From assembly GCA_963677485.1 (NCBI GenBank), contig OY781964.1:3744001-3808000 (forward strand): a stretch of DNA of 64,000 bases, written 5' to 3'. Positions within the stretch are counted from its first letter, which is position 1, and each line of letters begins with the position of its first letter. The stretch comes from Armatimonadota bacterium (lineage in GTDB: Bacteria > Armatimonadota > HRBIN16). The notes beneath the pieces were generated by a model. It was not told where the DNA came from, did no database searches, and worked only from the letters and a program-made list of their open reading frames with translations. A program made the translations under genes and the position numbers. Below are positions 1,499-43,299 of the stretch, piece by piece.

Positions 1499-2818
1499 CT
1501 ATGTCAGCAAAAGGCAGGGATTCTCTAGTATCTCCTTCAGCCTGGCGAAGAACTCGGCGGCGGGAACGCCGTCCATGATCCGGTGGTCGAATGACAGGCA
1601 AAGGTTCATCATGGCGCGCTGCTTAATCTCCCCGCCGCAAATCACCTGCTTCTCTGCGATCCGACAAACGCCCAGGATGGCGGCCTGACCAGGGGTGATG
1701 ATGGGGTCGAATTGGTCGATACCATATGCACCCAGGTTGGAGATAGTGAAAGTACCCCCGGTGAAGTCATCTGGGGTCGATTTTCCCGCGCGGGCACGTG
1801 CCACGATCGCTTTCAACTGAGTGGAGATGTCGGGCAAACTCGTGGAGGTCACACTCTTGATCACAGGCACGACAAGCGCACCCTCTACCGCGGTGGCGAC
1901 TCCGATTTTGATCTGCTCGTGGATAATGATCTCCGTATCGGTCAGCGAGGAGTTTACTATGGGCCTGTCTTGGATGGCCCTACCAACAGCCTTGACGATG
2001 ATGTCTGTGTACGAGATTCGCACCCCGCCGTGGGCCTCTATGTCTTTAAGTATCCGGTTGCGGAGCGCCACGCACTCCGTCATATCTACCTCAATCACGA
2101 GGGTCACATGCGGTATACATTGGGCACTCTTCATCACATTGTCGCCGACCGCTTTGCGTCTGCCGGTGTATGGGATACTTGAACCTAGTCTTACACTACC
2201 TGGGGCTGTCTGAGCAGGGGAAACGGCCTGGTGGATGTCCGCACTGGTCACCTTGCCGCCGATACCCCTGCCGGACACCGCATGGATATCTATCCCCATC
2301 TCGGCAGCCATCTTACTGGCGAGTGGTGTGACTTTCGGTGCGGACTTGAGGTAGTCCTCCACATCCCGTTGGATGATGCGCCCGTTGGGGCCGGTGCCGC
2401 GTGATGACAACTTCATGATGTCGAGGCCATGCTCTTTGGCCACGCGTCGGGCGGCTGGTGACGCGAATAGCCTGTCAGCATCTGGCTGATCGATGACGAT
2501 GTTTGACACTTGGACATCAGATGTGTCAGGAGCCGCTTGTTCTGGAGCAGGGGTGGTGATCTCAGGCTCTATAGATTCATCAGCCGTCCCGATGATGCAG
2601 ATGGGGTCTCCCACAGGAATCACGTCATCAGCTTGTGCAGTGATCTTGCGCAGGATGCCGGTCTCTGTGGCTTCTACCTCAAGGTTCGTCTTGTCGGTCA
2701 TCACCTCAAGCAGCAACTCGCCAGCCTTAACATGATCGCCCTCGTTCTTGAACCATTGGACAATGGTGCCTTCTTCCATCGTCTGACCTAACGCGGGCAT
2801 CAATATCGTCATCGCCAT
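1499..2818 (-). CDS. Dihydrolipoamide acyltransferase (E2) of a 2-oxoacid/acetoin dehydrogenase complex
   Basis: Lipoyl domain (EVMTDKTN), two peripheral-subunit-binding repeats (ASPAARR..GTGPNGRI; VTPLASK..GIGGKV), catalytic motifs GGTFTISNLG and DHRIMDG. Confidence 0.93.
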   Translation of the reverse strand: MAMTILMPALGQTMEEGTIVQWFKNEGDHVKAGELLLEVMTDKTNLEVEATETGILRKITAQADDVIPVGDPICIIGTADESIEPEITTPAPEQAAPDTSDVQVSNIVIDQPDADRLFASPAARRVAKEHGLDIMKLSSRGTGPNGRIIQRDVEDYLKSAPKVTPLASKMAAEMGIDIHAVSGRGIGGKVTSADIHQAVSPAQTAPGSVRLGSSIPYTGRRKAVGDNVMKSAQCIPHVTLVIEVDMTECVALRNRILKDIEAHGGVRISYTDIIVKAVGRAIQDRPIVNSSLTDTEIIIHEQIKIGVATAVEGALVVPVIKSVTSTSLPDISTQLKAIVARARAGKSTPDDFTGGTFTISNLGAYGIDQFDPIITPGQAAILGVCRIAEKQVICGGEIKQRAMMNLCLSFDHRIMDGVPAAEFFARLKEILENPCLLLT

Positions 2819-2842
2819 GATTTACCATCCAATCCTGTTTGT

Positions 2843-3676
2843 CTATCGGGGAGTTGCATCGGGAAGGCCGCCGTCCACCGGAATGGTGGCGCCTGTGGTG
2901 GGCGTCTGGTGCGACACCAGGAACAACACCGCATTCGCCACGTGTTCTGCGGTGACTTGCGCTTTCAACAGGTTGCGGCTCTGGTAATACTCCTCCAGCC
3001 CCTTCTCGTCCAGCCCACGTGCCTTCATTCTGCCCGGCCCTACCTCTTGCCATAGACCTGACTTGCGGGCACCATCGGAAAACACCGCATCGGGTGCGAC
3101 CATGTTCACACGCACGCCGATGGGGGCCAGTTCCAGGCTGGCGATGCGCGCCAACTGGTGCGCCGCGGCCTTGGTCGCGCTGTAGGCACCAAATGTGGCT
3201 CCCGGAGCAAACACGTTCTTGGTAGAAACAAGCACGATGTCGCCGCCATCGCCTTGCTCTTCAAACACGCGCGCCATCTCGCTCAAGACCAACAACGTGC
3301 CCTCGACATTGATCTTTTCCAACTTTTGGAACGCCGTCAGTGCCATATCTTTCAGTGATGACACATGTGCCACTCCGGCATTTATGACGGCGATCTCGAT
3401 GCTTTTCCATTGTGACTTGATGACCACCACTGCTTCAGCAACCGAAGCCGGGTCGGTCACGTCCATCGGCACGCCGATGACCCGGTCTCCAAATCGGGCA
3501 GACAACTCCGCCACCAAGCCATCCAGCCGCTCGCCTGGCAAGTCGGTGACGGCCACTCGGCAGTTCGCCTCAAGCAAGCCGCGGCTGATGCCTGCGCCTA
3601 TCGCGCCTGCGGCTCCGGTCACAAACGCCACGCGCCCATCTAGGTCGTAACGGCATACTGCTTTTTTGTAACTCAT
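2843..3676 (-). CDS. Short-chain dehydrogenase resembling the SDR domain of bifunctional rhamnulose-1-P aldolase/SDR (RhaEW type)
   Basis: TGAAGAIG Rossmann motif, NAG, YSATK catalytic motif. STKN..APG, VNMVAPDAVF, SGLW and YYQSRNLLK are characteristic of the RhaEW C-terminal domain. Confidence 0.85.
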   Translation of the reverse strand: MSYKKAVCRYDLDGRVAFVTGAAGAIGAGISRGLLEANCRVAVTDLPGERLDGLVAELSARFGDRVIGVPMDVTDPASVAEAVVVIKSQWKSIEIAVINAGVAHVSSLKDMALTAFQKLEKINVEGTLLVLSEMARVFEEQGDGGDIVLVSTKNVFAPGATFGAYSATKAAAHQLARIASLELAPIGVRVNMVAPDAVFSDGARKSGLWQEVGPGRMKARGLDEKGLEEYYQSRNLLKAQVTAEHVANAVLFLVSHQTPTTGATIPVDGGLPDATPR

Positions 3677-4389
3677 TTGGCACTCCTGATGATATTTAAC
3701 ATCGATATGGCGTTATCGTGGGGTGTCTTACCATCGTATACAGCACTTCCGGTGACCACCACATCCGCGCCCAGTTTCGCAATCTCTACGATGTTCTCTT
3801 TAGTGATTCCGCCATCCAGGCAGATCAGAATATCTCTATCGGCAATAAGTGTGCGCAACTGTACCATTCGTTCGGACGTGGCGGCGATGAACTTCTGACC
3901 GCCCCAGCCCGGGTTGATGCCCAGCAGTGTGACCATCTCGATCTCATCGAGCAGCGGCTCGATGGCCTGCATGGGTGTTCCTGGGTTGATGGCTAACCCG
4001 CGGACAATCCCTCTGTCTGGGTCGTTCGCATTCGCCATCTTACCCAGAGCTTGGAACACGCGATGGATATGGGTTGGTTCGCTTTCCCAATGCACAGTGA
4101 GAATATCCGCACCGGCAGCCACAAAATCTGCAAGTTTGTTCAGCGGCTCATTGATCATCAGGTGGATGTCTTTGAGCAAATTCGTCTTGATTCCCTTGAT
4201 GAACGGCGGGCCTATTGTCATGGACGGGCAGAAACACCCGTCCATGACATCGAAATGGAGGATGCCGACCCCCGTGTTCTCCAGAGCCGTCAGCTCATCC
4301 CCAAGCTTCATCATACTGGCGGTCAGTATGCCGACACTAATTGAAGGTGTCAAGGCTCTGAGTGTTTGCATCACGGGAGTAAGCGGCAT
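3673..4389 (-). CDS. rpe: Ribulose-phosphate 3-epimerase family protein
   Basis: HFDVMDG, DIHLMI, TVHWE, INPGT, NPGWGGQKF, LDGGI, VTGSAV. Start placed at ATG 4389, 1 nt from the lsrF stop, instead of the ORF-track start at 4455. Confidence 0.88.
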   Translation of the reverse strand: MPLTPVMQTLRALTPSISVGILTASMMKLGDELTALENTGVGILHFDVMDGCFCPSMTIGPPFIKGIKTNLLKDIHLMINEPLNKLADFVAAGADILTVHWESEPTHIHRVFQALGKMANANDPDRGIVRGLAINPGTPMQAIEPLLDEIEMVTLLGINPGWGGQKFIAATSERMVQLRTLIADRDILICLDGGITKENIVEIAKLGADVVVTGSAVYDGKTPHDNAISMLNIIRSAK

Positions 4390-4390
4390 G

Positions 4391-5272
4391 TCAGGCCTTC
4401 CTGTTTTTCTCGGTGAGATAGAATTCGTAGGCGTGTTCAGCGCATAGCCCTTCATGAACCACCTTGCGCACGGCCTGGATCATAGGAATGGGGCACTCGG
4501 CTTGGAAGATGTTGCGGCCCATGTCCACGCCGCAAGCTCCCTGTTGGATCGCGTTGTAGGCCATCTTCAAGGCGTCAAGCTCGGGCAGCTTCTTGCCGCC
4601 GGCTATCACGATTGGCACGGGGCATGAGGCCGCCACGGTGTCGAAACCCTCTTCCACGTAGTAGGTCTTCACGTAGGTTGCTCCCAGTTCGGCGCACATG
4701 CGGGTGGCGAGCCTCATATAGCGTGCGTCGCGCGCCATATCCTTGCCAACAGCGGTGACGCCCAGGGTGGCGATGCCGTAGCGGTTGCCCATGTCGACCA
4801 GCCTGGTCATGTTATGAATGGACTGCGACTCGTATTCGCCACCCACAAACACCTGCACGGCCATCGCCGCGACGTTCAAACGGATCGCTTCGTCGATGTC
4901 GATGGCGATCTGCTCATTGGATAGCTCCTTCAGGATGCTCGGTCCGCCGCTGGCTCGCAGCACGATGCCGCGGGTAAACGTGGGAGGGATCACCGAGCGC
5001 AGCACCCCGCGGGTGAGCATTAGGGTGTCAGCGTAGGGGAGTAGCGGCAGGATGTTGACGTCAATTCTTTCAAGGCCGGTGGTCGGTCCCTGGAAATATC
5101 CGTGGTCGATGGCCAGCATGACTGTCTTGTTTGTGTTGGGATCGAAAATCTGGGATAGCCTGTTTTTCAGGCCCCAGTCCAGGTTATTGCATCCCTTTAG
5201 CGGGTAGACCGTATTGGTCTGTGGGATATCCAGATAGAAGTTTTTCTCTTCGCGTGCATCTGCTTCCGGCAT
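4391..5272 (-). CDS. lsrF: LsrF-type 3-hydroxy-5-phosphooxypentane-2,4-dione thiolase (class I aldolase fold)
   Basis: [68 protein letters not shown] and [10 protein letters not shown] are hallmark LsrF segments. SD AAGGAG upstream. Confidence 0.92.
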
Positions 5273-5314
5273 TCTGATCTCCTTCTGTGGGCCTTCTTGG
5301 TTGGTTATCTCAAG

Positions 5315-5329
5315 TGATGAAATTCATCA
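5315..5329. promoter_or_regulatory. Palindrome TGATGAA-A-TTCATCA, candidate operator downstream of the leftward promoter
   Basis: Perfect 7-bp inverted repeat in the divergent intergenic region. Confidence 0.45.
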
Positions 5330-5339
5330 GAACTATCAC

Positions 5340-5373
5340 TTGACAATGTAACATCCTTACAGTATCCTGTCAA
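5340..5373. promoter_or_regulatory. Overlapping divergent sigma70 promoters
   Basis: + strand: TTGACA(5340)-17 nt-TATCCT(5363). - strand: TTGACA(5373-5368)-17 nt-TACATT(5350-5345). Confidence 0.7.
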
Positions 5374-5377
5374 GTAG

Positions 5378-5397
5378 TGAAATGACATTACATTTCA
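5378..5397. promoter_or_regulatory. Candidate RpiR-family operator TGAAATG-N6-CATTTCA
   Basis: Perfect 7-bp IR just downstream of the rightward -10. TGAAA..TTTCA resembles RpiR/MurR-family boxes. Confidence 0.55.
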
Positions 5398-5417
5398 TCA
5401 ACGACAAAGAGGGTTAT

Positions 5418-6305
5418 ATGACACCGGAAATAGATGCATCTAAAACTGAATTATCGAAGGGCACGGTCTTTTCCCGCATCCAAAGTATGTCCGCCAGCGG
5501 CAAAAAAAGTGTGACGGCCATCTCCGCATATGTGCTTCAGCATTCTGAGGCTGTGCTTCAGATGACCCTAACTGAACTGGCCACCCGTGTGGGCACCAGC
5601 GTGGCGAGTATCAGCCGTTATTGCAGCATGCTGGGTTATGAGAACTATCGGGCGTTTCAGATCGACCTGACTGCCTCCCTGGCTAATAACGCCACTTCCG
5701 TATCTGACCTGTTTGGATCGGAAGATGATACATCGACCATCATCAAGCGGGTTTTTGAGATGAATCGGCAGGGACTGGCCGACACAGAATCGCTGATGAA
5801 GCATGATGATATGGTAGAGGTGGCGAAACTCATCACCGCATCTCGAAGACTGTGTCTGCTGGGAATAGGCAGTTCAGGGCTGGTAGCCAGATCAAGTGCG
5901 CTAAAGCTGGCCAGTCTGGGTATTACAGCACTGGCGATTACCGACCCCTATGAGGGGATACTCACCCTCTCATCATCAACATGCGAGGACGTGTTGATAG
6001 CCATCAGCCACTCTGGACGCAGCGGACTCATCATTGAGCTGCTTGAGATTGCCAAAGAGAAAGGTGCCCGCACGGTGGGGATCACCAACTACTCAGACAC
6101 CACACTCGCCAACCAGTGCGAGTTCACTTTCCTGACCTCATTCCGTGAACGGCGCATCAATGCCGCCGTCTCCTCATCCAGCATTGAGCAGTTGTGCATT
6201 TTAGATGCGCTCTATTTTCTGATCGCACACCTGCAAGGGCCGATATCTGAATCAATGGTAATGGAAATCGAGACGAACGCAGAACGAATCATCCGAGCAA
6301 GGTAA
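5418..6305 (+). CDS. RpiR/MurR family transcriptional regulator (HTH + SIS domain)
   Basis: TLTELATRVGTSVASISRYCSMLGYENY helix-turn-helix, then GIGSSG, ISHSG, ITN and CILDALY SIS motifs. SD AGAGGG before ATG 5418. Confidence 0.92.
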   Translation: MTPEIDASKTELSKGTVFSRIQSMSASGKKSVTAISAYVLQHSEAVLQMTLTELATRVGTSVASISRYCSMLGYENYRAFQIDLTASLANNATSVSDLFGSEDDTSTIIKRVFEMNRQGLADTESLMKHDDMVEVAKLITASRRLCLLGIGSSGLVARSSALKLASLGITALAITDPYEGILTLSSSTCEDVLIAISHSGRSGLIIELLEIAKEKGARTVGITNYSDTTLANQCEFTFLTSFRERRINAAVSSSSIEQLCILDALYFLIAHLQGPISESMVMEIETNAERIIRAR

Positions 6306-6334
6306 CATACCAAACACACAAGGAGAACCTGTAG

Positions 6335-7678
6335 ATGTATCAAACCTATTACAACCCTGAAATCTTCTGCCAGACCTTCGATGGTATCGACCGTGACAAA
6401 TATGTGGTCGCCACATATTACATGGATGACTGCTTGCCTGGCGAGGATTTCATCGACCATTTTGCACTCGTTCAGGCGATGGCCCTGGAAGGCTCCACCG
6501 GCACATGGGAGAAGGTCGAAGAAGACACGCCCGAAATGCGCGAGGTCTATTCCTCCAAGATGGTGGGTTATTTTGAGCTGCCGTCGGATGACCCCAGCCG
6601 AAAACGGGCGATCGTTCAGCTTGCCTTCCCGCTGGCCGCATGGGGCAACAACATCACGATGATGCTTCTGGCCATCGCGGGCAACTGTTTTGCTTACAGC
6701 CCTTCGATTCGACTGCTGGACGTCTATCTCGGTGAGAACATTCTTAAGGGGTTCCAAGGACCGAAATTCGGCGTGCAGGGCATCCGCGACATCCTCGGTG
6801 TGGAAAAACGGCCTCTGTCGCTTCATATCATCAAGCCCAAAATGGGGATGACACCCGAGCAGGTGGCTCATCAGTGTTATCAGACCGCTATCGGCGGTGT
6901 CGACATGATGAAAGACGACGAGATGACCTCGGATGTCTCCAACAGCAATTACCTTGATCGTCTTAAAGCGGTGAATATCGCGCTGGACAAAGCGGAGAGC
7001 GAGACGGGCAAGCGCCCTATCTATCTGCTATCCATCACCCACGAGCCAGAAAAGATGAAAGAGCGTGCCTACAAGGCGATTGATGCTGGTGCTAACGGGC
7101 TGCTGGTCACCTATTCGGCTGGCCTGGGCGCATTGCGCGAACTGACCGAAGACCCCAAGATCAATGTGCCTGTGATGCTGCACGCCTCGCATATGATCGC
7201 TTCGTTGAAGAGCGTGTCATGGCCGGTAGGTGCCAAACTCTGCCGCCTGTGCGGTGCTGACCTTATGCTCACACCCACCATGTGGAGCTCCATCCCCATG
7301 GTGTCGCTTGAAGAGGGCGTACGCACCAGTCACATGCAGTTGGCACCTCTCGCTCACATCAAGCCGACCTTCGCGATGCCTTGCGCCGGGGTCTACCCAG
7401 GGCTGGCTCCCATCCTGGTCGGCGAATACGGCACGGATATCGTGATCCCCGCCGGTGGAGGGATGCTCGGGCACCCGGACGGCTACACCGCCGGTGCGAA
7501 GTCCTGGCAGCAGGCGATCGCTGCCACGATGAGCGATGAACCATTCATCGAGTATGCCAAACGGCCAGAGTGCGGTGAGCTCAGGAGAGCCATCAGCAAG
7601 TGGGGATACCTTGAGCGACCGAAGAGCCCATGGCTGCGTGTGGCACCAAAGTTCCACCCGAAGCATATGGAGCTGTAG
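6335..7678 (+). CDS. RuBisCO-like protein (Form IV RLP)
   Basis: EGSTGTW, AGNCF, GPKFG..GIR, IIKPKMG, GGVDMMKDDE and AGGGMLGHPDG. Lacks the R295, H327 and K334 equivalents of carboxylating RuBisCO. SD AAGGAG. Confidence 0.95.
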   Translation: MYQTYYNPEIFCQTFDGIDRDKYVVATYYMDDCLPGEDFIDHFALVQAMALEGSTGTWEKVEEDTPEMREVYSSKMVGYFELPSDDPSRKRAIVQLAFPLAAWGNNITMMLLAIAGNCFAYSPSIRLLDVYLGENILKGFQGPKFGVQGIRDILGVEKRPLSLHIIKPKMGMTPEQVAHQCYQTAIGGVDMMKDDEMTSDVSNSNYLDRLKAVNIALDKAESETGKRPIYLLSITHEPEKMKERAYKAIDAGANGLLVTYSAGLGALRELTEDPKINVPVMLHASHMIASLKSVSWPVGAKLCRLCGADLMLTPTMWSSIPMVSLEEGVRTSHMQLAPLAHIKPTFAMPCAGVYPGLAPILVGEYGTDIVIPAGGGMLGHPDGYTAGAKSWQQAIAATMSDEPFIEYAKRPECGELRRAISKWGYLERPKSPWLRVAPKFHPKHMEL

Positions 7679-7690
7679 AGTTCCTTCTAG

Positions 7691-7729
7691 ATGGGGGTAG
7701 ATCATCAGACACAGTTGATCTACTCCCGT
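7691..7729 (+). other. Intra-operon 14-bp stem-loop after the RLP gene (possible mRNA stabiliser)
   Basis: ATGGGGGTAGATCA / TGATCTACTCCCGT pair with two G-U pairs. No U-tract. Confidence 0.45.
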
Positions 7730-7809
7730 ATCCCGACCAACACATACCGGCAGCTTACCGACCATGTGCGCAGATTGATGTGCCGCACACCTATACAGGG
7801 GAATGATCG

Positions 7810-9297
7810 ATGACGACGGCAAAGCGGTTTTTGGCATATGACATTGGGGCATCTAACGGACGGGCCGTGGTGGGGGAATTTGATGGCGAGAAACTAACCT
7901 GTCGCGACATCTACCATTTCCCTAACGACCCCGTGCATGTGCCAGGTGGATTTCACTGGGATATTTTTCGGCTGTTTCACGAGGTCAAGCAGGCATTATG
8001 GGCTTACCGTTCGGAATGCGGTAGTGAGCTGGATGGCATCGGGATTGACACCTGGGGAGTGGACTTCGGCCTATTCGACAGAAACGGCAGACTGCTGGGA
8101 AATCCGCACCACTACCGTGACAGCCGCTGCGACGGCGCCGCCGAGGAACTCAGGCAGATCATCAACGGGTATGAGCTGTTTCAGCAGACCGGTGTGGCGA
8201 TTCAACAGGTAGCCACTATCACTCAGATGTATGCGTATGCGAAGAACAAGTCGCCCCTGCTGGAGGTGGCCAAGTCGTTCTTGATGATACCGAGTATCTT
8301 CAACTACTACCTGACCGGCGAGAAGGTGGATGAGCATTCCAATATATCCAATACCGCCTTGCTGGCCATCAAGGACAACGCCCCTGCCAAGGGGGTGCTG
8401 AGTGCCATCGGCATCTCGCGCAATATCCTGCCTCGGTTTGTGATGCCTGGAGACACCATAGGATTGCTTCGAGGACGGGTGGCGGATGAGCTAGGTATGG
8501 GTTCGGTGCCGGTTTTTGCTCCAGCGACGCACGACTCCGCGAGTGCGGTGCTATCGATACCGGCTGATCCCACCACCAACTGGGCGTTTTTGAGCTGCGG
8601 AACCTGGTCGGTGCTGGGTGTAGAGACCGATAAGCCGATTCTCGGTCCCCGCGCCTATGAGCTGAACCTCACGAGTGCCGCCACCGCTGACGGCAAGTAT
8701 ATGTCGCGCTTCAATATCAACGGGCTTTGGATATTGCAGGAGATTCGCAGGGCGTGGGAGGGGCAGGGCAGCCGGATGAACTGGAAGGGCATGGTGCGTG
8801 TGGTGGCATCCACTGAGCCGTTCACCGCGTTCATCGATGTGGACGACCCTGCCTTCGCCGATCCGGTAGATATGCCCACGGCGATCATTGAGTATTTGAC
8901 AGCTACAGAGCAGCGGATTCCGGGCGATAAGGGCACGATGGTGCGTATTGTGCTGGAGAGTCTGGCAATGAAATATCGCTTCCTGCTGCGCCAGATCAAA
9001 GAGCTGTCTGGGAAGCCGATTGACGTGCTGCACATCGTGGGTGGTGGTGTGAAGAACACAGTGCTGTGCAGCCTGACAGCCAGCGCGGTCGGGATTCCGG
9101 TTGTGGCCGGCCCTATGGAGGCAACCTGCAGCGGAAACCTGCTTACCCAGATGATGGGTGCAGGCATTGTAAAGACGATAGACGAGGGGCGCATGTTGCT
9201 GCGTTCCTCCTACGACCTGACTTTGTACAAGCCACACCGTGCTAAAGCATGGGACGAGGCCTATCAACGATACCTGACAGTGACAGGGAGGAAATAG
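7810..9297 (+). CDS. rhaB: Rhamnulokinase-like FGGY carbohydrate kinase
   Basis: LAYDIGASNGR, GIDTWGVDF, YRDSR, ATHDSASAV, LSCGTWSVLG, NINGLWILQE, ESLA, IVGGG, GPMEAT..GN. Confidence 0.88.
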   Translation: MTTAKRFLAYDIGASNGRAVVGEFDGEKLTCRDIYHFPNDPVHVPGGFHWDIFRLFHEVKQALWAYRSECGSELDGIGIDTWGVDFGLFDRNGRLLGNPHHYRDSRCDGAAEELRQIINGYELFQQTGVAIQQVATITQMYAYAKNKSPLLEVAKSFLMIPSIFNYYLTGEKVDEHSNISNTALLAIKDNAPAKGVLSAIGISRNILPRFVMPGDTIGLLRGRVADELGMGSVPVFAPATHDSASAVLSIPADPTTNWAFLSCGTWSVLGVETDKPILGPRAYELNLTSAATADGKYMSRFNINGLWILQEIRRAWEGQGSRMNWKGMVRVVASTEPFTAFIDVDDPAFADPVDMPTAIIEYLTATEQRIPGDKGTMVRIVLESLAMKYRFLLRQIKELSGKPIDVLHIVGGGVKNTVLCSLTASAVGIPVVAGPMEATCSGNLLTQMMGAGIVKTIDEGRMLLRSSYDLTLYKPHRAKAWDEAYQRYLTVTGRK

Positions 9298-9299
9298 AA

Positions 9300-10280
9300 A
9301 TGCTTGGTAAGAACAAACTGGGTGCGTGCCTTCCAACGTTCGGCTCATGTGCCGACAGATACTGCCTCTCGGGGTATGGTGGGGGTGGCACCACGATGGA
9401 GGAGATGCTGGACCTAGCCACTCAGGTCAAGCAGCTTGATGGCCTTGAGATCGTGGGTAACTGGCATGTGAATGACCAAAACATCGATCTGGTGAAAAGG
9501 CTGTTCGCAGAGCGTAACCTTGAAATCAGCATGGTGGTGCCGGATCTGTGGACTCAAGCGAAGTGGGGCAAGGGTAGCCTCGCCTCCCAGGATCCACTGA
9601 TTCGCAAGGCGGCGGTGGCGGAAGTGAAGAAGTCGATGGACTGGGCTGCGGGGGTTGGCTGCTCGTATGTGGATGTTTGGCCCGGGCAGGACGGTTATGA
9701 CTATCCGCTTCAAGCGGACTTCACTGAGGCCTGGAAATGGATGAAAGACGGGATTGAGGATTGTGCGGCCCACCGCACCGATGTGAAGGTGCTGGTGGAG
9801 TATAAGCTCAAGGAGCCTCGCACGCATTGCTATATCAACAGTGCCGCGAAGACGATCCTGCTGATTGACGGACTGCCGAACACCGGTGTGCTGCTGGATA
9901 TCGGCCACTCGATGGCTGCGGGCGAGAACATCGCGGAAGCGGCGGCATTGCTAGATGACTACGGATGCCTTGATTATCTTCATCTGAATGATAACTACCG
10001 CGTGTGGGACGATGACATGATGTTCGCCGCGGTGAATATACCGGAGACTCTAGAGTTCATATTCTGGCTGAAGAAACTCAACTACACCGGATGGCTGACG
10101 CTGGACATCTTCCCATACCGCGAAGACAAAATACCGGTGGTGGAGAACTGCTTTGCCTGGCTGACGACGTTGATGGCGGCGGTCGAAAAGAAGGGCGTTG
10201 CCGAAATTCAGGCTGTGCTGCGATCGGCCGACGCCAACCGCAGCGTCGCGCTGGTCCGCGAATTGCTGACAGGGGGATGA
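9300..10280 (+). CDS. Xylose-isomerase-like TIM-barrel sugar isomerase
   Basis: WPGQDGYDYP, EYKLKEPR, LDIGH, HLNDNYRVWDDD and LDIFP metal-binding motifs. SD GGGAGG before ATG 9300; the ORF-track start at 9249 overlaps the kinase. Confidence 0.87.
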   Translation: MLGKNKLGACLPTFGSCADRYCLSGYGGGGTTMEEMLDLATQVKQLDGLEIVGNWHVNDQNIDLVKRLFAERNLEISMVVPDLWTQAKWGKGSLASQDPLIRKAAVAEVKKSMDWAAGVGCSYVDVWPGQDGYDYPLQADFTEAWKWMKDGIEDCAAHRTDVKVLVEYKLKEPRTHCYINSAAKTILLIDGLPNTGVLLDIGHSMAAGENIAEAAALLDDYGCLDYLHLNDNYRVWDDDMMFAAVNIPETLEFIFWLKKLNYTGWLTLDIFPYREDKIPVVENCFAWLTTLMAAVEKKGVAEIQAVLRSADANRSVALVRELLTGG

Positions 10281-10284
10281 TACG

Positions 10285-11286
10285 TTGACTCATGAAACAC
10301 GCGACCTGAGAGGCCGTGAACCCGAACAAGAGATATCGGCTGATAGGCTGCTGGCCATGTACAAAACCATGGTTAGGATCCGCCGGTTCGAAGACACCAT
10401 ACACCTGAGATTCCTGAAGGGCACACTGCCTGGAACAGTTCATCTATATCAGGGGCAGGAGGCCGTGGCGGTCGGTGTGTGCGCACATCTGAACGAACAA
10501 GATGCCGTTGCCAGCACACACAGGCCGCATGGCCACGCCATAGCTAAGGGTGTGAGTCTGCGGTCGCTGATGGCGGAGCTTTACGGCAAGGAAACGGGTT
10601 GCTGTAAGGGAAAAGGCGGGTCGATGCACGTGGGCGATGCTTCTGTGGGTATGCTGCCGGCTATCGCCATCGTGGGTGGCGGACTTACCATCGCCACAGG
10701 CTGTGGACTGGCCTTCAAGATGCAGAAGAATCACAACGTGGCAATCGCCTTTCTAGGTGATGGTGCGTCCAACGAGGGTGACTTCCATGAGGCACTGAAC
10801 ATGGCCGCGATATGGAATCTGCCGGTGGTGTTCGTGTGTGAAAACAACCTGTATGGTGCTTCCACTAGCCTAAAGCTTGTGTGCAAGCTGGAGGATATCG
10901 CCGACCGTGCAGCCAGTTACGACATGCCATCGTCGATCTGCGACGGTAATGACCTCTTCTCAGTGTATGGGGCGTTGGCTGAGGCTGTGGAACAGGCACG
11001 CTCTGGCGGCGGCCCAAGCCTGGTGGAGTGCAAGACCTACCGTATCGGCGGACACTCCCGTTCAGACGGCAACGCTTACCGTGACAAAGAAGAAGAGAAG
11101 CTCTGGTTTGAGCACGACCCCATTCGAAACTTGCAGACAAAGCTGATCAGCATGGGCGTGATGACAGAACCCGACATCGCACGCATCGATGATGAGATCG
11201 AAAAAGAGATCGAAGATGCGACGGAGTTTGCGGTGAACAGCCCGCTTCCTTTACCGGACGAGTGCTTTACGGACCTCTGGGCATAG
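10285..11286 (+). CDS. ThDP-dependent dehydrogenase E1 alpha subunit (acetoin/pyruvate dehydrogenase type)
   Basis: HLYQGQEA, STHRPHGH, GKGGSMH, GDGA..N..ENN ThDP motif, TYR..GHS. Confidence 0.93.
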   Translation: MTHETRDLRGREPEQEISADRLLAMYKTMVRIRRFEDTIHLRFLKGTLPGTVHLYQGQEAVAVGVCAHLNEQDAVASTHRPHGHAIAKGVSLRSLMAELYGKETGCCKGKGGSMHVGDASVGMLPAIAIVGGGLTIATGCGLAFKMQKNHNVAIAFLGDGASNEGDFHEALNMAAIWNLPVVFVCENNLYGASTSLKLVCKLEDIADRAASYDMPSSICDGNDLFSVYGALAEAVEQARSGGGPSLVECKTYRIGGHSRSDGNAYRDKEEEKLWFEHDPIRNLQTKLISMGVMTEPDIARIDDEIEKEIEDATEFAVNSPLPLPDECFTDLWA

Positions 11287-11298
11287 GAGAAGAGAGAT

Positions 11299-12318
11299 AT
11301 GAAAAAACTGTCATACGCCGAAGCGATACGGGAAGGCATCAAAGAGGAGATGCAGCGCGACCAGCGCGTGTTCTGCATCGGTGAAGATATTGGGGTGGAG
11401 AATGGCTTTGGTGGAGCCTTTACGGTCACCCTTGGATTGTCCGACATCTTTGGGCATGAGCGTATCCTCGATACCCCCATTTCGGAAGCAGGTCTGGCGG
11501 GGGCCGCCATCGGTGCTGCTATGATGGGCATGCGCCCCATCGCCGATGTGCAGTATTGCGATTTCCTGTTCTGCTGTATGGACCAGATGATCAATGAGGC
11601 TCCGAAGATGCGTTACATGTCCGGTGGCGGTTTTTCGGTGCCGATGGTGATGCGCGCTCCTGTGGGGGTGACCGCCCGCGGTGCCCAGCACGCCCAGAGC
11701 GTGGAGAGCTATTTCATGCACTGCCCAGGTTGGAAGATCGCCTGCCCTTCGAATGCATACGATGCGAAAGGCATACTCAAAACAGCCGTGCGGGATGACA
11801 ACCCGGTGTTGATATTTGAACACAAAAAGTTGTATGGTGCCAAAGGCATCCGCAAGGTGGAAGGCGCACTGGATGCCTCCAGTGATATCCCAGAGGAAGA
11901 CTACACCATCCCCGAAGGCAAGGCGCGGATCGTCCGAGCGGGTAAGCATGTGACCGTGTTGGCCAACCTCAGGATGGTCTACGAGGCCGGTTTCGCCGCC
12001 AGTGAACTAGCGGAAGAGGGCATTGAAGTGGAGCTCATCGACCCACGCTGGCTGGTGCCATTTGACTATGAGACGCTGTATGCCTCTGTGAAGAAGACAG
12101 GCCGACTGGTGGTAGTGCATGAAGACACCATCACGGGCGGATGGGGTGCTGAGATCGCCGCGAAGGCGATGTTCGATGTGTTCGACTATCTTGATGCGCC
12201 GGTCTGGCGTGTCGCCGCGCCAGATACCCCTGCACCCTTCTCGCCTCCATTGGAGGATGTGTATGTGCCGAGTAAGGAGCGCATCAAGCAGGCGATACGG
12301 AAGATCTGTTATCGGTGA
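11299..12318 (+). CDS. ThDP-dependent dehydrogenase E1 beta subunit
   Basis: IGEDIG, DTPISE, GMRP, AQHAQS, DAKG, EHKKLY, SVKKTGR, LDAPV.RV. Confidence 0.93.
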   Translation: MKKLSYAEAIREGIKEEMQRDQRVFCIGEDIGVENGFGGAFTVTLGLSDIFGHERILDTPISEAGLAGAAIGAAMMGMRPIADVQYCDFLFCCMDQMINEAPKMRYMSGGGFSVPMVMRAPVGVTARGAQHAQSVESYFMHCPGWKIACPSNAYDAKGILKTAVRDDNPVLIFEHKKLYGAKGIRKVEGALDASSDIPEEDYTIPEGKARIVRAGKHVTVLANLRMVYEAGFAASELAEEGIEVELIDPRWLVPFDYETLYASVKKTGRLVVVHEDTITGGWGAEIAAKAMFDVFDYLDAPVWRVAAPDTPAPFSPPLEDVYVPSKERIKQAIRKICYR

Positions 12319-12878
12319 GAACTGGTTACATCTTCGACTTTGACGGTGTGCTGGTCGATAGCATTGAAGTGCATTGGTCCAGCTTCATGCCAGCCTGTTC
12401 AGAAGTGGGTATACATGTAGACAGGGACAGACTTGTCAGATACAACGGCATCCCGGTAATCCAGCAGATTGAGCTGTTTGCAGGCCACTCCAACGTTCAG
12501 GTGAATGCAAATGCAGTATTCGATCGATATTCAGAAAACTATGCCCTGCAGTCAATAGAAGATGTGGTCATCATCGAGCCCATGTTAGGGATAATGCGTG
12601 CATTATCCCTTGCCGGTTGCTCGGTGGCCATTGCATCTAGCGGCTCACGGGAGCACATTCAGGCGATTGTAGACAAGTTTGCCATTCCATGCGAGATCAT
12701 TGTCTCGAATAACGATGTGAGCAACGGCAAGCCAGACCCCGAGATATTCCTTACCGCCGCAGCAAGGTTGGGCATCTCTCCCGAGAACTGCGTGGTGTTT
12801 GAAGACTCAGATATAGGCATTCAGGCCGCCGTGCGCGCAGGAATGGCTACCCTGCATTTCCGACAGCACGACGACTGA
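12315..12878 (+). CDS. HAD-family phosphatase (beta-phosphoglucomutase/YqaB-like)
   Basis: FDFDGVLVDS, ASS, KPDPEIF, FEDS..GI.AA..AGM. GTG start overlaps the E1b stop. Confidence 0.88.
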   Translation: MRTGYIFDFDGVLVDSIEVHWSSFMPACSEVGIHVDRDRLVRYNGIPVIQQIELFAGHSNVQVNANAVFDRYSENYALQSIEDVVIIEPMLGIMRALSLAGCSVAIASSGSREHIQAIVDKFAIPCEIIVSNNDVSNGKPDPEIFLTAAARLGISPENCVVFEDSDIGIQAAVRAGMATLHFRQHDD

Positions 12879-13062: not shown

Positions 13063-13557
13063 ATGAACAAGTCGAAGGTTATCACTATACTCGTATTCAT
13101 CGGGATTACAGTGACCGGGGTGTACTGGCTGATGGACATAAATCGCAGCGAGCATTATTATATATATCTCCCTGGAGGATTTGTATCCTATAGAGATGAG
13201 TATGGTGCGATATTCAAAAATATTCGCCTTCAACCGCCACCTTCAAAGAAACGGTATATAGGCCCTAATGTGGGTGGATATCACGTATATCAATCTGCCA
13301 TCGTAGGGAAGATAACACCGCATCCCAATGACCAGGATTTATCGCAGATGAATATCAGCCACGACTTATACGAAAGACGGCCCGGCTATTTCATCCTTGA
13401 TCTACGCACGAAAGAGGTGTATGGCGGTTTGAATAAGCACAACTGGATACTGAAGTTAAAATCCTACGGCATCACCGAGGAGCCGGAGTTATACGAACCC
13501 TCCTGGCGGGACGAAAAGCTGAGGCGTAATGAGCCGCAAGCCGACATTGTGGAGTAA
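13063..13557 (+). CDS. Hypothetical membrane-anchored protein (DUF3997-like) in an AT-richer segment
   Basis: N-terminal TM helix and the motif YFILD..TKEVYGGLN....KLKSYGI. Visibly lower GC than the flanks. Confidence 0.6.
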   Translation: MNKSKVITILVFIGITVTGVYWLMDINRSEHYYIYLPGGFVSYRDEYGAIFKNIRLQPPPSKKRYIGPNVGGYHVYQSAIVGKITPHPNDQDLSQMNISHDLYERRPGYFILDLRTKEVYGGLNKHNWILKLKSYGITEEPELYEPSWRDEKLRRNEPQADIVE

Positions 13558-13702: not shown

Positions 13703-16700
13703 CTACTTCACAGCCAGTATCTGCACCGGCCCTAACAGCCCCGAAGAATACAGCGGCGTATCAGCCCCCAACTGGAAGTTGGATTTGGTCAACCGTTGAG
13801 CCACAGGCAGGGCGGCATCACCGATCACGCGGTTCGCCCACAGGTTCGCCACCTCGATCTCCAGCGTATTCACACCAGGTTTGATGGCTGCTCCCAGATC
13901 GGCCTGCCAGGGCTCGCACCAGGTCACGCCCAAATCCTTGCCGTTCAAGCGCACACGGGCGATGTCCTTCACCACACCCAGGCTGAGCCGCAGCTTCGAA
14001 ATCTGCGCTGGCGTCAGACCCTGGGGTAGGTTGAAACTGGTGCTGTAGGTTGCGATTCCGGAGTAGAATCTCAAGCCGGGTTCGGCACGTTTCGTCCAGT
14101 CGGTGAGCTGTTTGAACACCAGCCTGCCTTTCGACAGGTCGCCGGAAGTCCCCAGAGCAGGTGATACCCAGGCTGGATCGAACTGCACGGCCCAAGGGCC
14201 TTTAACTTCTTGCATCGGCTTATACTCATGGAAGTTAGGTTTGGCTTTCACAGTGGCTGGTGTGGCTGCCTTCTGGCGGAAGATGATGAACAACCCCTGG
14301 TATGCCTCGAAGCGCATGGGGATGACTGTCTGCTGTGCTTTGATTGAGTAACTCGGAAGCGCACTGACCTTGCCTGTGAGCGGGTCGAACAGCTCCGGTA
14401 CTTTGCCAGTGATGCGTAATGCTATCTGCATTTTGAGCAGCTTACTGGACGGGTTCGCTACGAAATAGATGTCAGTGTCCTTCGTGCGCCGATGAATCCA
14501 GTCGAGGCTGATGGTTGCGGACGGATCGAATGAGCCCCATGGGCTGCAGCCTAACGGTCCGACGATGCTGGCGGATGTCCAAGTTTTGGCATCCTGGCTG
14601 GACTGCCATGTGTCCGCATCGGTGCAGAGTTCCGTTGTCTTGCCGTTTGATAGTGTGACCACGAATTTACCGATCAACCCAGCGGGGCTGGGCTCGTTGG
14701 TGATATTGACGGCCTTCACCAGGACTGTGTTCCGTCCGGCCTTCAGCAGCTTCGAAATATCGGCGTCAGATGCTTTCTGCCAGTCTACGCTCTTCAAGCA
14801 CTCTTTGCCGTTGACCGTCAGGGTGAACTCGTTGTCTGCGGACATGCTGACCAATGCTTTCTGAACCTTGGCTTTTGCTGGCAGATCGATGGTCGATCTG
14901 AAGTAACGGGTTCCGGGTGCTGGGTATCCTGCGGCACTGCCATGCCATATCCAAGAGGCATTCGCCAGACCCGCTCGTTTGGCGGTAGAGGCATTGCCGA
15001 TATCGGTAGCCACCATATCGGGCAGGGAGTTGTCCTTCTGCATCAGCTTGTCAATCGAGAGCCCCCACACTACGCGGCCTATGCCCACGCTATGGATGCC
15101 CTTCGGTGTGCGTTTGGTACCCCATAAGGTGTTGACGAGTGCTTTCAGCTTAACCTCGGCGGACGCCCGGTTTGCCAGGCCTGGGGTGCGTGTGGGCGGT
15201 TTCCCAACCAGTGTGCCACCTGCTGCCACCAGATTCGCAATCTTCTGCAGCACTTCAGTGCTCATGGTCGAACTGTATGGGTCGGTGAGCACGAGATACC
15301 GGTAGCTCAGCCTGTCCGGCAGTGTCCACCGGCCGTTCTTGACCGAGAGGCGGGTGAGCAGCACTTCAGCATTTATGCCGTCGTAGTCGCATCCCAACGG
15401 CAACGCAGGCTTCAAACTCGCCTTGCTGGGCACATATCGGGAAGAGCCCTCGCCCACAAAGTAGGCGGCGTCGGCCACGAACTTCCCTTGCTGCAGAAGA
15501 CACTGGCAGCGTCCGATGTAGTTCAGCATCCCCTCAGCCATCGGCCACCAGGTGTAGTGACGGCTGAATATGCCATAGTCTTCCAAACCGGGCTTGTATT
15601 CAAAGGGCTGATGAACATACTTGTGTATCACCGCGGAGTTCAGACCATTGGCGAAGCAATAGTTGAGTGTTTTGCGGTAACGGTCGGGGGCGGTGACCTG
15701 CCCCAGCCAGGGGTGATAAGTCAGCGTCTCGGCTTGCACGATCTGCCGGCCGTAGATGCGTGCGCCGGAGGCGGCGGTACGCAGTGCATCGGCGAAGGGG
15801 TTTGACATCGCACTGGAGACGTTCTCTAAAGAGTTGTTGTGCGAGACCTCCGCCATTGGCAGGTCGGCGCGGCCAAAAACCTTCAGACCATCCTGGTGCG
15901 GTGAGGGATAACTACCATAACCCGATTCTGGGTTCATCATGGTGTTGGTCAGGTGCGCTCTGTGCTGGAGCTGTCCGTAGTAATCCGCCACCAAGTCCGC
16001 GATGGTGGCGCGGTAGTCGGTAAGGAACCTTTCGGTGGTCTCGCTGTCATCCACGATGCGGCGCGCCATCGCAGGGAGCATCGAAAGCAAGTCATACCCT
16101 CGGCGCTTGCGGAACTGCTCGCGGAACTCTGGCGTCCAGGTGGGCTGCTGTCCTTGGACATCGGCACCGATCTCCCAGCTATCGGTGTGGAATAGTTTCA
16201 TCACGCCCGGTGCGCTCTTTTCGGTAGCCTTGAGCATGCCCATCGCCGCGTTGTCGAACATCAGGTCAGCGCCTTTGGTGCTCAGCACATCCACCTCGTA
16301 GCCACCGCCAGCGGACATACGCGCGGGCTGTCCGATGGTGGTCCATCCGAAGCGCATGATTGTCCAGCGTCCTGAGGGTGCCTTCCAGTCCAAGTGACCG
16401 TCGGGTCGCAGATATTTGGTGAGGTCGATCACCTGGCTGCTCTTGAGGTCGTATTGTTTGTGGAATGGGTTGTTATCATCCATCGCAGCTTCCACCAGAA
16501 TGCCGCGGTTGCCAGACTTGTAGTTCCACCATTTGATGCCCTGGCGCACCGTGGGCTGGTCACCCTGACGCAGCATCTGGAACTCCGCCAGACTGACATC
16601 CGGTGAATAGGCCGATGTGATCACCAGCCGGAAGTAACGTCCAGTGGTTTCTGCGATGGAAATCTGCTTCGCCTCGCCCTGCTTCATGTTGATTTGCTTG

Positions 16701-17506: not shown

Positions 17507-17617
17507 GTTTGTGTATCCTCTCAATGCTGATGCGTCGGTGCTACCTACCACGATACAGCCATGGCGTATGCTTGTGCAATGGTTGATTTGGCCTTTTGTT
17601 TGCACATTCTGACCAAA

Positions 17618-39062: not shown

Positions 39063-39063
39063 G

Positions 39064-41163: not shown

Positions 41164-41218
41164 TCGAAGCGCACAGAATGCAGACGCGTGTTTCGGTATA
41201 GAAACGGGGAGCAGCACA

Positions 41219-43294: not shown

Positions 43295-43299
43295 GTGTT

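Follow-up and report, generated by a model that had tools for sequence, protein, structure and literature searches.

In this study, we analysed a 64,000-nt stretch of the genome of an Armatimonadota bacterium (contig OY781964.1, positions 3,744,001 to 3,808,000; called the window below), in which eleven genes at positions 1499-12878 surround and include the gene of a RuBisCO-like protein (RLP). The genes form two divergent, tightly packed operons with a shared spacer of 109 nt. All eleven lie where a first-pass annotation of the sequence had placed them, and their Pfam and NCBIfam families are those named there; coordinates, short gaps and overlaps agree with its description of two tightly coupled operons. 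Protein identities were taken from Pfam and NCBIfam models, and scores are written below as score/curated cut-off. The features of the locus are as follows.

1499-2818, minus strand: dihydrolipoyl acyltransferase (E2) with Biotin_lipoyl, E3_binding and 2-oxoacid_dh domains (Pfam); last gene of the left operon
2843-3676, minus strand: short-chain dehydrogenase (SDR), matching the C-terminal part of NF006194
3673-4455, minus strand: paralogue of ribulose-phosphate 3-epimerase (Rpe), PF00834, 169 bits
4391-5272, minus strand: predicted LsrF orthologue (3-hydroxy-5-phosphonooxypentane-2,4-dione thiolase), NF006081; first gene of the left operon
5273-5381, no strand: divergent intergenic control region of 109 nt, with promoter-like sites and inverted repeats at consensus level
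5382-6305, plus strand: RpiR/MurR-family regulator with HTH_6 and a SIS sugar-phosphate-binding domain
6335-7678, plus strand: RLP of an uncharacterised clade, PF00016 and PF02788
7810-9297, plus strand: FGGY kinase of the rhamnulokinase/fuculokinase branch, TIGR02627 373 bits, below cut-off
9249-10280, plus strand: xylose-isomerase-like TIM-barrel isomerase, PF01261
10285-11286, plus strand: thiamine diphosphate (ThDP)-dependent E1 alpha, PF00676, 294.8 bits
11299-12318, plus strand: E1 beta, Transket_pyr and Transketolase_C
12315-12878, plus strand: HAD-IA phosphatase, a beta-phosphoglucomutase-family hydrolase, translationally coupled to E1 beta
13703-17605, minus strand: GH106 alpha-L-rhamnosidase, PF17132, 476 bits; a neighbour and at most a putative member of the cluster

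Within the operons, adjacent genes overlap (SDR and Rpe by 4 nt, E1 beta and the HAD phosphatase by 4 nt) or lie 4-29 nt apart (isomerase to E1 alpha 4 nt, E1 alpha to E1 beta 12 nt, E2 to SDR 24 nt, RpiR to RLP 29 nt), except for the RLP-kinase gap, the widest in either operon with 131 nt. The Pfam match of the Rpe paralogue starts only at residue 39, and therefore its true start probably lies downstream of 4455. On each strand of the spacer at 5273-5381 there is a sigma-70-like site that has an exact TTGACA and fits the consensus at 10 of 12 positions; the two sites overlap, and the spacer also harbors the perfect inverted repeats TCAAGTGAT/ATCACTTGA and ACTTGACA/TGTCAAGT. Since 12 promoter-like sites were counted across the 12.4-kb region and 9.0 +/- 3.2 in shuffled sequence, the promoters of the spacer are consensus matches only.

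Conservation of the cluster

For comparison, 107 loci were collected, 27 from species-representative genomes and 80 from metagenomes, and their open reading frames (ORFs) were clustered with the window proteins. The ORF caller was crude and genes were split in frameshifted long-read metagenome-assembled genomes (MAGs; e.g. L020, L021, L024-L026), and all family counts are lower bounds; in addition, the loci are phylogenetically non-independent and many contigs are short. In the well-flanked subset, 29 loci in number, the RLP has 6 kb or more on each side. The source MAGs of these loci carry the labels Acidobacteriota/Terriglobia, Bryobacterales, Planctomycetes/Brocadiaceae, Armatimonadota, Anaerolineae, Bacteroidaceae and Acidimicrobiia, and more than 100 RLP loci are found in assemblies from soil, peat, sediment and groundwater. 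The families were counted as follows.

RLP: 106 of 107 loci
Isomerase: 71 of 107 loci; 29 of 29 well-flanked loci
Kinase: 59 of 107; 19 of 29
E1 alpha: 53 of 107; 22 of 29
RpiR: 52 of 107 (directly upstream of the RLP); 15 of 29
E1 beta: 44 of 107; 19 of 29
E2: 39 of 107; 19 of 29
URO-D-like: 27 of 107; 13 of 29
LsrF: 9 of 107; 6 of 29
Rpe: 7 of 107; 4 of 29
GH140-like (apiosidase-like): 7 of 107; 5 of 29
Cyclase-family gene: 7 of 107
SDR: 5 of 107 (window type); 6 of 29
Class II aldolase: 5 of 107
HAD, after E1 beta: 5 of 107
GH28: 4 of 107

The conserved unit is RLP-isomerase-E1 alpha/beta(-E2-kinase-RpiR), and RLP, isomerase, E1 alpha/beta and E2 are adjacent and co-oriented in loci of several phyla. 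The first-pass annotation had treated the complete gene set as one pathway built on the RLP, LsrF and the E1/E2 complex. The core of RLP, isomerase, E1, E2 and kinase recurs as this would imply; lsrF, rpe and the SDR gene are a minority addition, and a pathway resting on LsrF does not hold for the cluster as a whole, as these genes accompany the core at only 9 of the 107 loci and occur elsewhere without any RLP.

The stretch between E2 and E1 beta, both included, is syntenic with the sister genome (L001) at 90% nucleotide identity, and synteny stops exactly at the E1 beta stop (window ~12316). Because it breaks off there, the HAD and GH106 genes lie outside the conserved block, and the HAD is an accessory gene. 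Past this point, L001 (15983-16210) carries DNA that is located at 1.005 Mb in the genome of the window, with a ~300-bp element repeated at 11 other places there.

The LsrF-Rpe-SDR genes were followed in a phylum sample of 401 genomes (thresholds E <= 1e-40 for LsrF and E <= 1e-60 for the RLP). LsrF was present in 28 genomes, the RLP in 11 and both in 8, with related genomes that are not independent of each other. About 19 kb were fetched around 18 of the 29 LsrF places of this sample. LsrF, Rpe and SDR occur together in eight of these regions (L138, L140, L141, L144, L145, L146, L151, L155) and LsrF with Rpe in two further ones (L139, L143); an RLP cluster adjoins LsrF in three (L138, L141, L144), and in L151 the triad has a GH140-like gene next to it. 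None of these partners was found in the seven regions with distant LsrF homologues (51-63% identical) nor in L142 (85%). The three genes LsrF-Rpe-SDR thus move as a unit and are added to the RLP core in some lineages, as a minority module. In the window, the triad has captured an E2 of another lineage as well, one that is only ~30% identical to the E2 of most other loci.

It could be argued that an extra pyruvate dehydrogenase (PDH), an LsrF module and a kinase/isomerase/RLP set came together by chance and share no pathway, as the LsrF triad and the RLP core each occur without the other and HAD and GH106 are not conserved. However, the E2 to E1 beta block is syntenic in L001 and the core recurs across phyla in adjacent, co-oriented order, and therefore the gene set is beyond chance. 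Furthermore, 8 of the 11 genomes with an RLP carry LsrF, compared with 28 of 401 overall (kin not being independent), and the E2 of the window is split from E1 and sits in the LsrF operon. A chance assembly is accordingly very improbable.

Several loci differ from the window in the composition of the core. When a kinase profile was run on the 48 loci lacking a kinase-family match, an FGGY gene was found in only 3, and 15 of the 17 long loci examined had none. Where the kinase is lacking, the unassigned ORFs ahead of the RLP were checked for a kinase of some other family; they gave AAA ATPase, GH3, GH2 and metallophosphoesterase matches or no Pfam match, but no kinase. A separate small E1 beta clade has the gene order kinase-cyclase-E1 alpha-E1 beta-HAD-isomerase. 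Two Acidobacteriota loci (L011, L014) have two E1 alpha/beta sets in one RLP cluster, kinase-cyclase-E1 alpha-E1 beta-HAD-isomerase and URO-D-E2-E1 alpha-E1 beta, with the E1 beta types in separate clades. A module of an aminotransferase-III, two Amidohydro_2 and an SDR gene occurs in 6-9 of the 107 loci. The URO-D of the 27 RLP loci follows the isomerase and is of a subtype different from the URO-D gene beside the L001 cluster, which is one of the unrelated paralogues. A search for the cluster-type URO-D in the genome of the window gave none (best 22-25% identical), and the 43 URO-D-family matches there (e.g. C1:1063597, 386535, 492234) are far above the need of haem synthesis.

Outside the cluster, the block is flanked by the GH106 rhamnosidase and a DUF4838 protein, and the remaining 64-kb window holds various glycosidases, esterases and housekeeping genes, with no recognisable polysaccharide-utilisation locus. 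The GH106 gene had been taken as a sign of a pectin or rhamnogalacturonan-II context. Even the sister genome lacks it at this position, and the genome of the window has at least 7 further GH106-like genes; a pectin/rhamnogalacturonan-II flavour does come from the GH140-like (7) and GH28 (4) genes at other loci. Two GH140-like genes of the genome lie far from the window. Co-occurrence of RLP and GH140 across the phylum is uninformative, with GH140-like genes in 244 of the 401 genomes. Between HAD and GH106, a 164-aa ORF (13063-13557) has no Pfam or NCBIfam match and at least 5 paralogues, 40-44% identical, dispersed through the genome. Further away (37002-45363), four tandem co-oriented ORFs of 686, 699, 691 and 687 aa, the first with Melibiase/GH36 domains, look like a tandem array of GH36-like paralogues.

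The RuBisCO-like protein

The RLP is the sole RuBisCO-family gene in the genome, a single 5.22-Mb contig. It remains under every NCBIfam cut-off (MtnW models NF007095 269.3/409 and TIGR03332 220/513.6, form III 220/497, OiaX NF042437 136/700). Against solved structures it reached 199.5 (2zvi) and 193 bits (2oek) with MtnW enolases, 189 bits with form III RuBisCO and 167 bits with the Chlorobium RLP, and by these scores it appears about equally distant from all three. At E <= 1e-20, 700 relatives were found among 7999 scored candidates, and a search of 1.84 billion representatives gave 195 at E <= 1e-30, with graded identities of 53, 47, 44, 42, 41 and 39%. The relatives among the 120 matches listed are 67-100% identical and bear automatic names only, such as 'DK-MTP-1-P enolase' (2,3-diketo-5-methylthiopentyl-1-phosphate enolase). 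No characterised name is present in the clusters of 20 full-length representatives (ranks 2-28), which have automatic names and, wherever an organism is legible, stem from uncharacterised strains or MAGs; named organisms appear among them only at ~37-38% identity (Anaerofustis, Desulfosporosinus, Lachnospiraceae, Eubacteriaceae). With no curated cut-off reached, the RLP seems to belong to none of the characterised families, methionine-salvage and apionate enzymes included, as the first-pass annotation had assumed. Genome G187 of the phylum sample has a second RLP (C1:2525881-2527119), 38% identical to that of the window, beside a family RLP (65% identical) in the same genome.

Active-site positions were surveyed in 74 full-length members from the fetched loci, which are 61-99% identical and span phyla. 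We take the catalytic set of RuBisCO to be K175, K177, K201, D203, E204, H294, R295, H327, K334 and S379 (spinach numbering). Counterparts of E60, W66, N123, K175, K177, K201, D203, E204 and H298 are invariant in all 74 proteins, G381, G403 and G404 are conserved in 73, with a gap in the remaining row, and T65 is Thr in 71 and Ser in 3. H294 is replaced by Pro in all members, R295 by Ile, Val or Leu, H327 by Leu, K334 by Ser (73) or Ala (1) and S379 by Cys in 72 of 74, and the full catalytic set of bona fide RuBisCO (forms I-III) is not found in the family. The predicted carbamate-Mg site and P1 phosphate site are thus intact, while the second phosphate site and the residues for carboxylation and hydrolysis appear to be gone, as expected for a monophosphate substrate and a reaction with neither carboxylation nor hydrolysis.

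The MtnW/YkrW 2,3-diketo-5-methylthiopentyl-1-P (P, phosphate) enolases are the best-scoring structures, and they, like the RLP, carry P-x where RuBisCO has H294/R295 and lack H327 and K334. A HAD phosphatase lies downstream in the window, and in Bacillus the phosphatase MtnX follows MtnW. Unlike in the enolases, the scores of the RLP stay under the model cut-offs, and the Lys at the N123 position, which we take to be the catalytic K98 of G. kaustophilus MtnW, is missing: B. subtilis MtnW has G-K-L where the RLP of the window has G-N-C, and all 74 members have Asn. The family also keeps K177 and E60, and the cluster of the window is devoid of MtnK, MtnB and MtnD genes.

The apionate RLPs (the decarboxylases OiaC/OiaX and the transcarboxylase/hydrolase OiaT) belong to catabolic clusters for a rare plant cell-wall sugar, a setting that the present RLP may share; GH140, GH28 and GH106 genes are near some of its loci. 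Rhizobial plasmids with apionate-type clusters supplied two RLPs for comparison (R. johnstonii OiaX; Microvirga), 26% and 31% identical to that of the window. Both retain the loop-6 Lys (K334) and the HxHR motif (HAHR), and both adjoin a gene for a four-carbon acid sugar kinase (DUF1537), with ABC transporters also beside them; none of these features is seen in the present family, and no DUF1537 kinase was found in the RLP loci. Because K334 and HxHR are present in both apionate RLPs, whose substrates are carboxylated, and in none of the 74 family members, a proton-transfer (isomerase-type) function of the RLP seems more likely than that of a decarboxylase.

This bears on the route that had been put forward for L-aceric acid, in which isomerase and kinase would form 3-C-carboxy-5-deoxy-L-xylulose-1-P, the RLP would decarboxylate this beta-keto acid, and Rpe, SDR and LsrF would yield dihydroxyacetone phosphate (DHAP) and acetyl-CoA. 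The intermediate is a close analogue of 3-oxo-isoapionate-4-P, the known substrate of the apionate RLPs (PMC6302742). LsrF suits a 5-deoxy C5 product, GH140-like (7 loci), GH28 (4 loci) and GH106 (window) genes adjoin the cluster, and decarboxylase-type families accompany it elsewhere (URO-D in 27 loci, Amidohydro_2 in 6-8). Moreover, no catabolic pathway appeared among the papers listed by a literature search on aceric acid catabolism. However, all 74 members have Ser or Ala and Pro-Ile/Val/Leu at the positions where the loop-6 Lys and HxHR are retained in R. johnstonii OiaX and the Microvirga protein, which disfavours a decarboxylase, and the OiaX model is far from being reached. The route would also leave the most conserved partners, E1 alpha/beta and E2, idle and depend on LsrF, Rpe and SDR, which are absent from most loci; the GH106 adjacency is not conserved either. 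In this form, use of aceric acid appears quite unlikely. The alternative mentioned at first pass, 1,3-isomerisation by the RLP followed by E1/E2 cleavage of a 1-deoxy-pentulose-5-P, fits better than decarboxylation and is preferred here.

Proposed pathway and substrate

As a plausible but still tentative reading, we propose an RpiR-controlled catabolic cluster in which a 5-deoxy-pentulose-1-P is isomerised to 1-deoxy-pentulose-5-P, which is cleaved either by E1/E2 or by Rpe, SDR and LsrF. In the first step, the two-metal xylose-isomerase-like enzyme would convert a free aldose to the 2-ketose. Its best structure is 3ktc (an unannotated 'xylose isomerase', 193 bits). In the alignment with Thermus xylose isomerase 1bxb, for which we assume the metal-ligand numbering used here, the counterparts of E181, K183, H220, D255, D257 and D287 are kept, E217 is replaced by Asp and D245 by His. 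Matches to RhaI and XylA are weak, and the xylose isomerase and RhaI models (78/447, 73/531) remain far under their cut-offs. The gene contexts of plasmid-borne homologues (Pantoea, Croceibacterium; 35% identity) gave no functional hint.

In the second step, the RhaB/FucK-like FGGY kinase would phosphorylate C1. RhaB/FucK-type kinases phosphorylate C1 of 2-ketoses, and the kinase of the window (373/527.95 on the rhamnulokinase model TIGR02627, 66/528 on the LsrK model) has its best structures in S. pneumoniae FucK (4c23, 275 bits) and E. coli RhaB (2cgj, 249 bits). Its nearest relatives therefore seem to be kinases acting at C1 of omega-deoxy L-ketoses. Alternatively, the ketose-1-P might derive from 5'-deoxyadenosine or methylthioadenosine (MTA) via MtnP and MtnA. 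A MtnP-MtnA-phosphoribosyltransferase (Apt) operon is located at C1:4385162-4387021 (L160 5642-8022), ~630 kb from the cluster; MtnP scores 279/275 bits as MTA phosphorylase, and MtnA is of the IF-2B family. Judged from these families, the two enzymes would make 5-deoxy- or 5-methylthio-ribulose-1-P internally. The operon has no downstream methionine-salvage or aldolase gene, and no nucleosidase for MTA or S-adenosylhomocysteine (SAH) was found in the genome. A class II aldolase-family ORF lies 5 kb from the operon, beyond two glycosyltransferase genes.

In the third step, the RLP would bind the 1-phosphate, 2-keto group and 3-hydroxyl on its carbamate-Mg site and shift the carbonyl by enolisation, giving 1-deoxy-pentulose-5-P as C3 epimers. 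Enzymes of the RuBisCO family enolise 1-phospho-2-keto-3-hydroxy compounds on a carbamate-Mg site. A precedent is the Deep-Ykr RLP of the MTA-isoprenoid shunt of R. rubrum, which converts 5-methylthioribulose-1-P (MTRu-1-P) to 5-methylthioxylulose-5-P (MTXu-5-P) and MTRu-5-P at 3:1 (PMC4958253). Like the step proposed here, this reaction comes after a ketose-1-P with a non-hydroxyl C5, and its product is a 1-substituted pentulose-5-P with two C3 epimers; the genome of the window also has MtnP and MtnA. Unlike in the shunt, the cluster of the window has no cupin sulfurylase and is not adjacent to mtnP/mtnA; MTA phosphorylase, MTR-1-P isomerase (MTR, methylthioribose) and cupin sulfurylase are absent from it and from the families common to at least 4 of the 107 loci. 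Its partners are a free-sugar isomerase, an FGGY kinase, E1/E2 and LsrF, and the proposed outcome is catabolic cleavage instead of methionine or isoprenoid salvage.

The same observations could be read as disposal of S-adenosylmethionine (SAM) by-products or autoinducer-2, with MTRu-1-P or 5-deoxyribulose-1-P (from MtnP-MtnA) or phospho-4,5-dihydroxy-2,3-pentanedione (phospho-DPD) as substrate, an RLP isomerase that feeds LsrF as an analogue of LsrG, and glycosidase neighbours that are coincidental. The MtnP-MtnA-Apt operon without a downstream enzyme, the missing MTA/SAH nucleosidase, the many kinase-less loci, the R. rubrum precedent and a genuine LsrF are consistent with this. On the other hand, a trace by-product would hardly call for a dedicated E1/E2 complex, RpiR and an isomerase of free-sugar type, the families common to at least 4 of the 107 loci include no cupin and no LsrK, LsrG or LuxS-type genes, and the kinase hardly matches the LsrK model. 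We regard such a role as improbable.

For the final cleavage of the 1-deoxy-pentulose-5-P proposed here, two branches are conceivable. In branch 4a, E1 alpha/beta and E2, together with the single lipoamide dehydrogenase (Lpd) of the genome, would split C2-C3 oxidatively, formally a reversal of 1-deoxyxylulose-5-P (DXP) synthase (DXS), to acetyl-CoA, glyceraldehyde-3-P (GAP) and NADH. E1 alpha, E1 beta and an E2 with lipoyl and catalytic domains complete the 2-oxoacid dehydrogenase architecture, with E1 alpha (TIGR03182 360.7/393.85) and E2 (best NCBIfam equivalog 328/445) under the equivalog cut-offs and E1 beta just above that of subfamily NF006667 (331/321). The E2 has both the lipoyl-Lys motif TDK and the catalytic motif DHRxxDG. 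As in acetoin and pyruvate dehydrogenases, E1 alpha/beta are combined with a lipoyl E2, and E1 alpha is near PDH, with the human (mitochondrial-type) PDH E1 alpha as best structure (207 bits); E1 beta has weak matches to DXS models. Acetoin dehydrogenase cleaves a methyl-ketol, and we know of no oxidative cleavage of DXP. Unlike those complexes, E1 and E2 of the window are extra copies embedded in an RLP sugar cluster: the genome has two further E1 alpha/beta pairs, two further E2 genes and one Lpd, and in a tree the E1 beta of the window is nested in the clade formed by those of other RLP loci. A housekeeping PDH was rejected on these grounds. Since E1 cleavage erases the C3 stereocentre, no epimerase is needed in the core clusters.

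In branch 4b, a second exit in the lineage of the window, Rpe would set C3, SDR would oxidise the C4-OH to 3-hydroxy-2,4-pentanedione-5-P, and LsrF would transfer the acetyl group to CoA, leaving DHAP. LsrF converts 3-hydroxy-2,4-pentanedione-5-P to DHAP and acetyl-CoA, with which the name of the NCBIfam model agrees, and Rpe-type epimerases invert C3 of 2-ketose-5/6-phosphates. The identity of LsrF given at first pass is upheld: it is the sole cluster protein that clears an equivalog cut-off easily (NF006081 492.8/297) and matches the E. coli LsrF structures 3gkf/3glc/4p2v with 398 bits over 285 residues (5-289, full length). It retains the KTYY segment, which holds the catalytic Schiff-base Lys, and is a close orthologue of E. 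coli LsrF. Unlike in the E. coli lsr operon, lsrK, lsrG, lsrACDB and lsrR are absent from the window and LsrF is linked to an Rpe paralogue and an SDR. The Rpe paralogue is below the cut-off of TIGR01163 (182.7/212.6) and above that of the subfamily NF004076 (170.7/165), and is 35% identical to a second Rpe elsewhere in the genome. The SDR has 400.6 bits over positions 436-703 of NF006194 (whole-protein cut-off 686), and in L003 its orthologue, with 79% identity, forms the C-terminal portion of an Aldolase_II-SDR fusion of 729 aa; it is thus probably an orthologue of the C-terminal half of the 'bifunctional class II aldolase/SDR' subfamily.

1-Deoxy-pentulose-5-P would be the only intermediate that fits Rpe epimerisation, the feeding of LsrF after a single C4 oxidation and ThDP-dependent cleavage together, and the scheme is favoured because this compound suits all three downstream options. 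Similar logic is known from the DHAP shunt for 5-deoxyribose salvage (kinase, MtnA-type isomerase, class II aldolase), which also leads from a presumed 5-deoxy-pentulose-1-P to a triose phosphate (on this shunt, see PMC6079011 and PMC10986504). A class II aldolase is present in 5 RLP loci, fused in L003. Unlike in the DHAP shunt, isomerase precedes FGGY kinase in the window scheme, and cleavage by a ThDP enzyme or thiolase is proposed to give acetyl-CoA instead of acetaldehyde.

The aldolase also belongs to a scheme based on a 6-deoxyhexose (L-fucose, a rhamnose isomer or a deoxyhexose with methylation or another modification), in which the RLP would form a 4-keto isomer that E1/E2 cleave to GAP and lactyl-CoA, or oxidation and LsrF would give DHAP and lactyl-CoA, or aldolase and SDR would act, the latter on lactaldehyde. 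The kinase nearest to FucK and RhaB, the weak RhaI and XylA matches of the isomerase, an SDR orthologous to the fusion half and the full fusion at the same position in L003, the class II aldolase of 5 loci and the adjacent GH106 all point this way. In two near-identical Acidobacteriota loci (L010 17401-19223, L070 11951-13713), CoA-transferase A and B genes follow shortly downstream of E1 beta; they would suit recycling of a non-acetyl acyl-CoA such as this scheme produces, and are too few to build on. Plain L-rhamnose is an unlikely substrate, as the genome has elsewhere a canonical RhaA (646 bits), an aldolase-SDR fusion and, at position 2918753, a kinase paralogue with a higher score on the rhamnulokinase model (476.6 vs 373, both below cut-off). 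In addition, an Rpe-type epimerase and an LsrF close to that of E. coli fit a C5 2-ketose-5-P better, and a carbonyl shift from C2 to C4 in a hexulose would give a 3-ketose, which would not be an Rpe substrate. A 6-deoxyhexose therefore appears unlikely.

D-Apiose was considered as well. Carter and colleagues are reported to have described in 2018 several apiose pathways, including an apulose-4-P route with a split transketolase. In a variant of it, isomerase and kinase would make an apulose phosphate, E1 alpha/beta (and E2) would replace the split transketolase to give DHAP and a C2 unit, and Rpe would act on the pentulose-5-P product. The trio of isomerase, FGGY kinase and ThDP enzyme parallels this route, and a GH140-like gene directly adjoins the cluster at 7 of the 107 loci and, in L151, the LsrF triad. 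Adjacency weighs less, however, given the 244 of 401 phylum genomes with GH140-like genes; apulose has no hydrogen on C3, so that an enolising RLP would be left without a task, and the known LsrF substrate is a 1-deoxy compound. Apiose thus has a low probability.

For the preferred 1-deoxy-pentulose-5-P scheme, the sugar most likely has a 5-deoxy-pentose skeleton. As candidates, L-aceric acid after loss of its 3-carboxyl ranks before 5-deoxy-D-ribose or methylthioribose, and these before other omega-deoxy sugars. Aceric acid is to our knowledge the only 5-deoxy-pentose of plant cell walls, and as a substrate it is possible and attractive from the context, with GH140-like, GH28 and GH106 genes bordering some loci. 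URO-D and Amidohydro_2, decarboxylase-type families beside the isomerase in many loci, could remove the carboxyl.

Several points weigh against this scheme. Every step is an inference from genes, and the likeness of the RLP to the Deep-Ykr isomerase is drawn from reaction logic. The retained N123, K177 and E60 match true RuBisCO, and the isomerase class is not known to be marked by them. The two branches, 4a and 4b, duplicate each other, with triose phosphate, acetyl-CoA and NADH as products of both, yet they are co-located in the window with E2 in the LsrF operon. E1 alpha/beta are found near LsrF-Rpe without an RLP in L139 and L143, which hints that E1 and LsrF may cooperate instead of being alternatives. 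Because the isomerase is always present (29/29) while 15 of 17 long loci have no FGGY kinase, it may act on a phosphorylated intermediate and not on the free sugar, and the two carbonyl shifts might be divided between RLP and isomerase. A 6-deoxyhexose is indicated just as well by the kinase, the SDR (nearest to fusions named rhamnulose-1-phosphate aldolase/SDR in NCBIfam) and the fused aldolase of L003. The URO-D-like (27 loci), cyclase-family (7) and aminotransferase-Amidohydro_2-SDR (6-9) genes are unexplained by the scheme, and the cluster has no transporter gene.

Novelty and meaning of the cluster

Taken together, the earlier interpretation is partly supported. The cluster is real, conserved, uncharacterised, catabolic and centred on the RLP, and no description of the gene set, regarded as unpublished at first pass, was found in full-text literature searches, the coverage of which excludes most subscription journals. 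It is possible, though on present evidence still rather doubtful, that uncultured Acidobacteriota, Armatimonadota, Planctomycetota and others harbor an undescribed pathway that combines a new RLP class relocating the carbonyl of a deoxy-ketose-1-phosphate, a PDH-like complex running the DXP synthase reaction oxidatively in reverse, and LsrF as a second exit recruited from outside quorum sensing. If true, the reaction would be 1-deoxy-pentulose-5-P + CoA + NAD+ -> acetyl-CoA + GAP + NADH, and were L-aceric acid the feedstock, this sugar of rhamnogalacturonan-II would gain its first catabolic route.

The known RLP functions (methionine salvage enolase, MTRu-1-P isomerase, apionate decarboxylase/transcarboxylase) have each revealed new chemistry on the RuBisCO scaffold. 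The present clade is large and strongly conserved with a fixed active-site pattern, and its automatic name 'DK-MTP-1-P enolase' fails the tests made here. Assigning the reaction of the RLP would therefore correct a systematic misannotation and give an LsrF orthologue a role outside autoinducer-2 metabolism. Possibly, sugar phosphates would become a new substrate class for E1/E2 complexes, and the use of a rare deoxy or branched plant sugar by soil bacteria would be explained. The RLP cluster thus offers good prospects of new enzyme chemistry.

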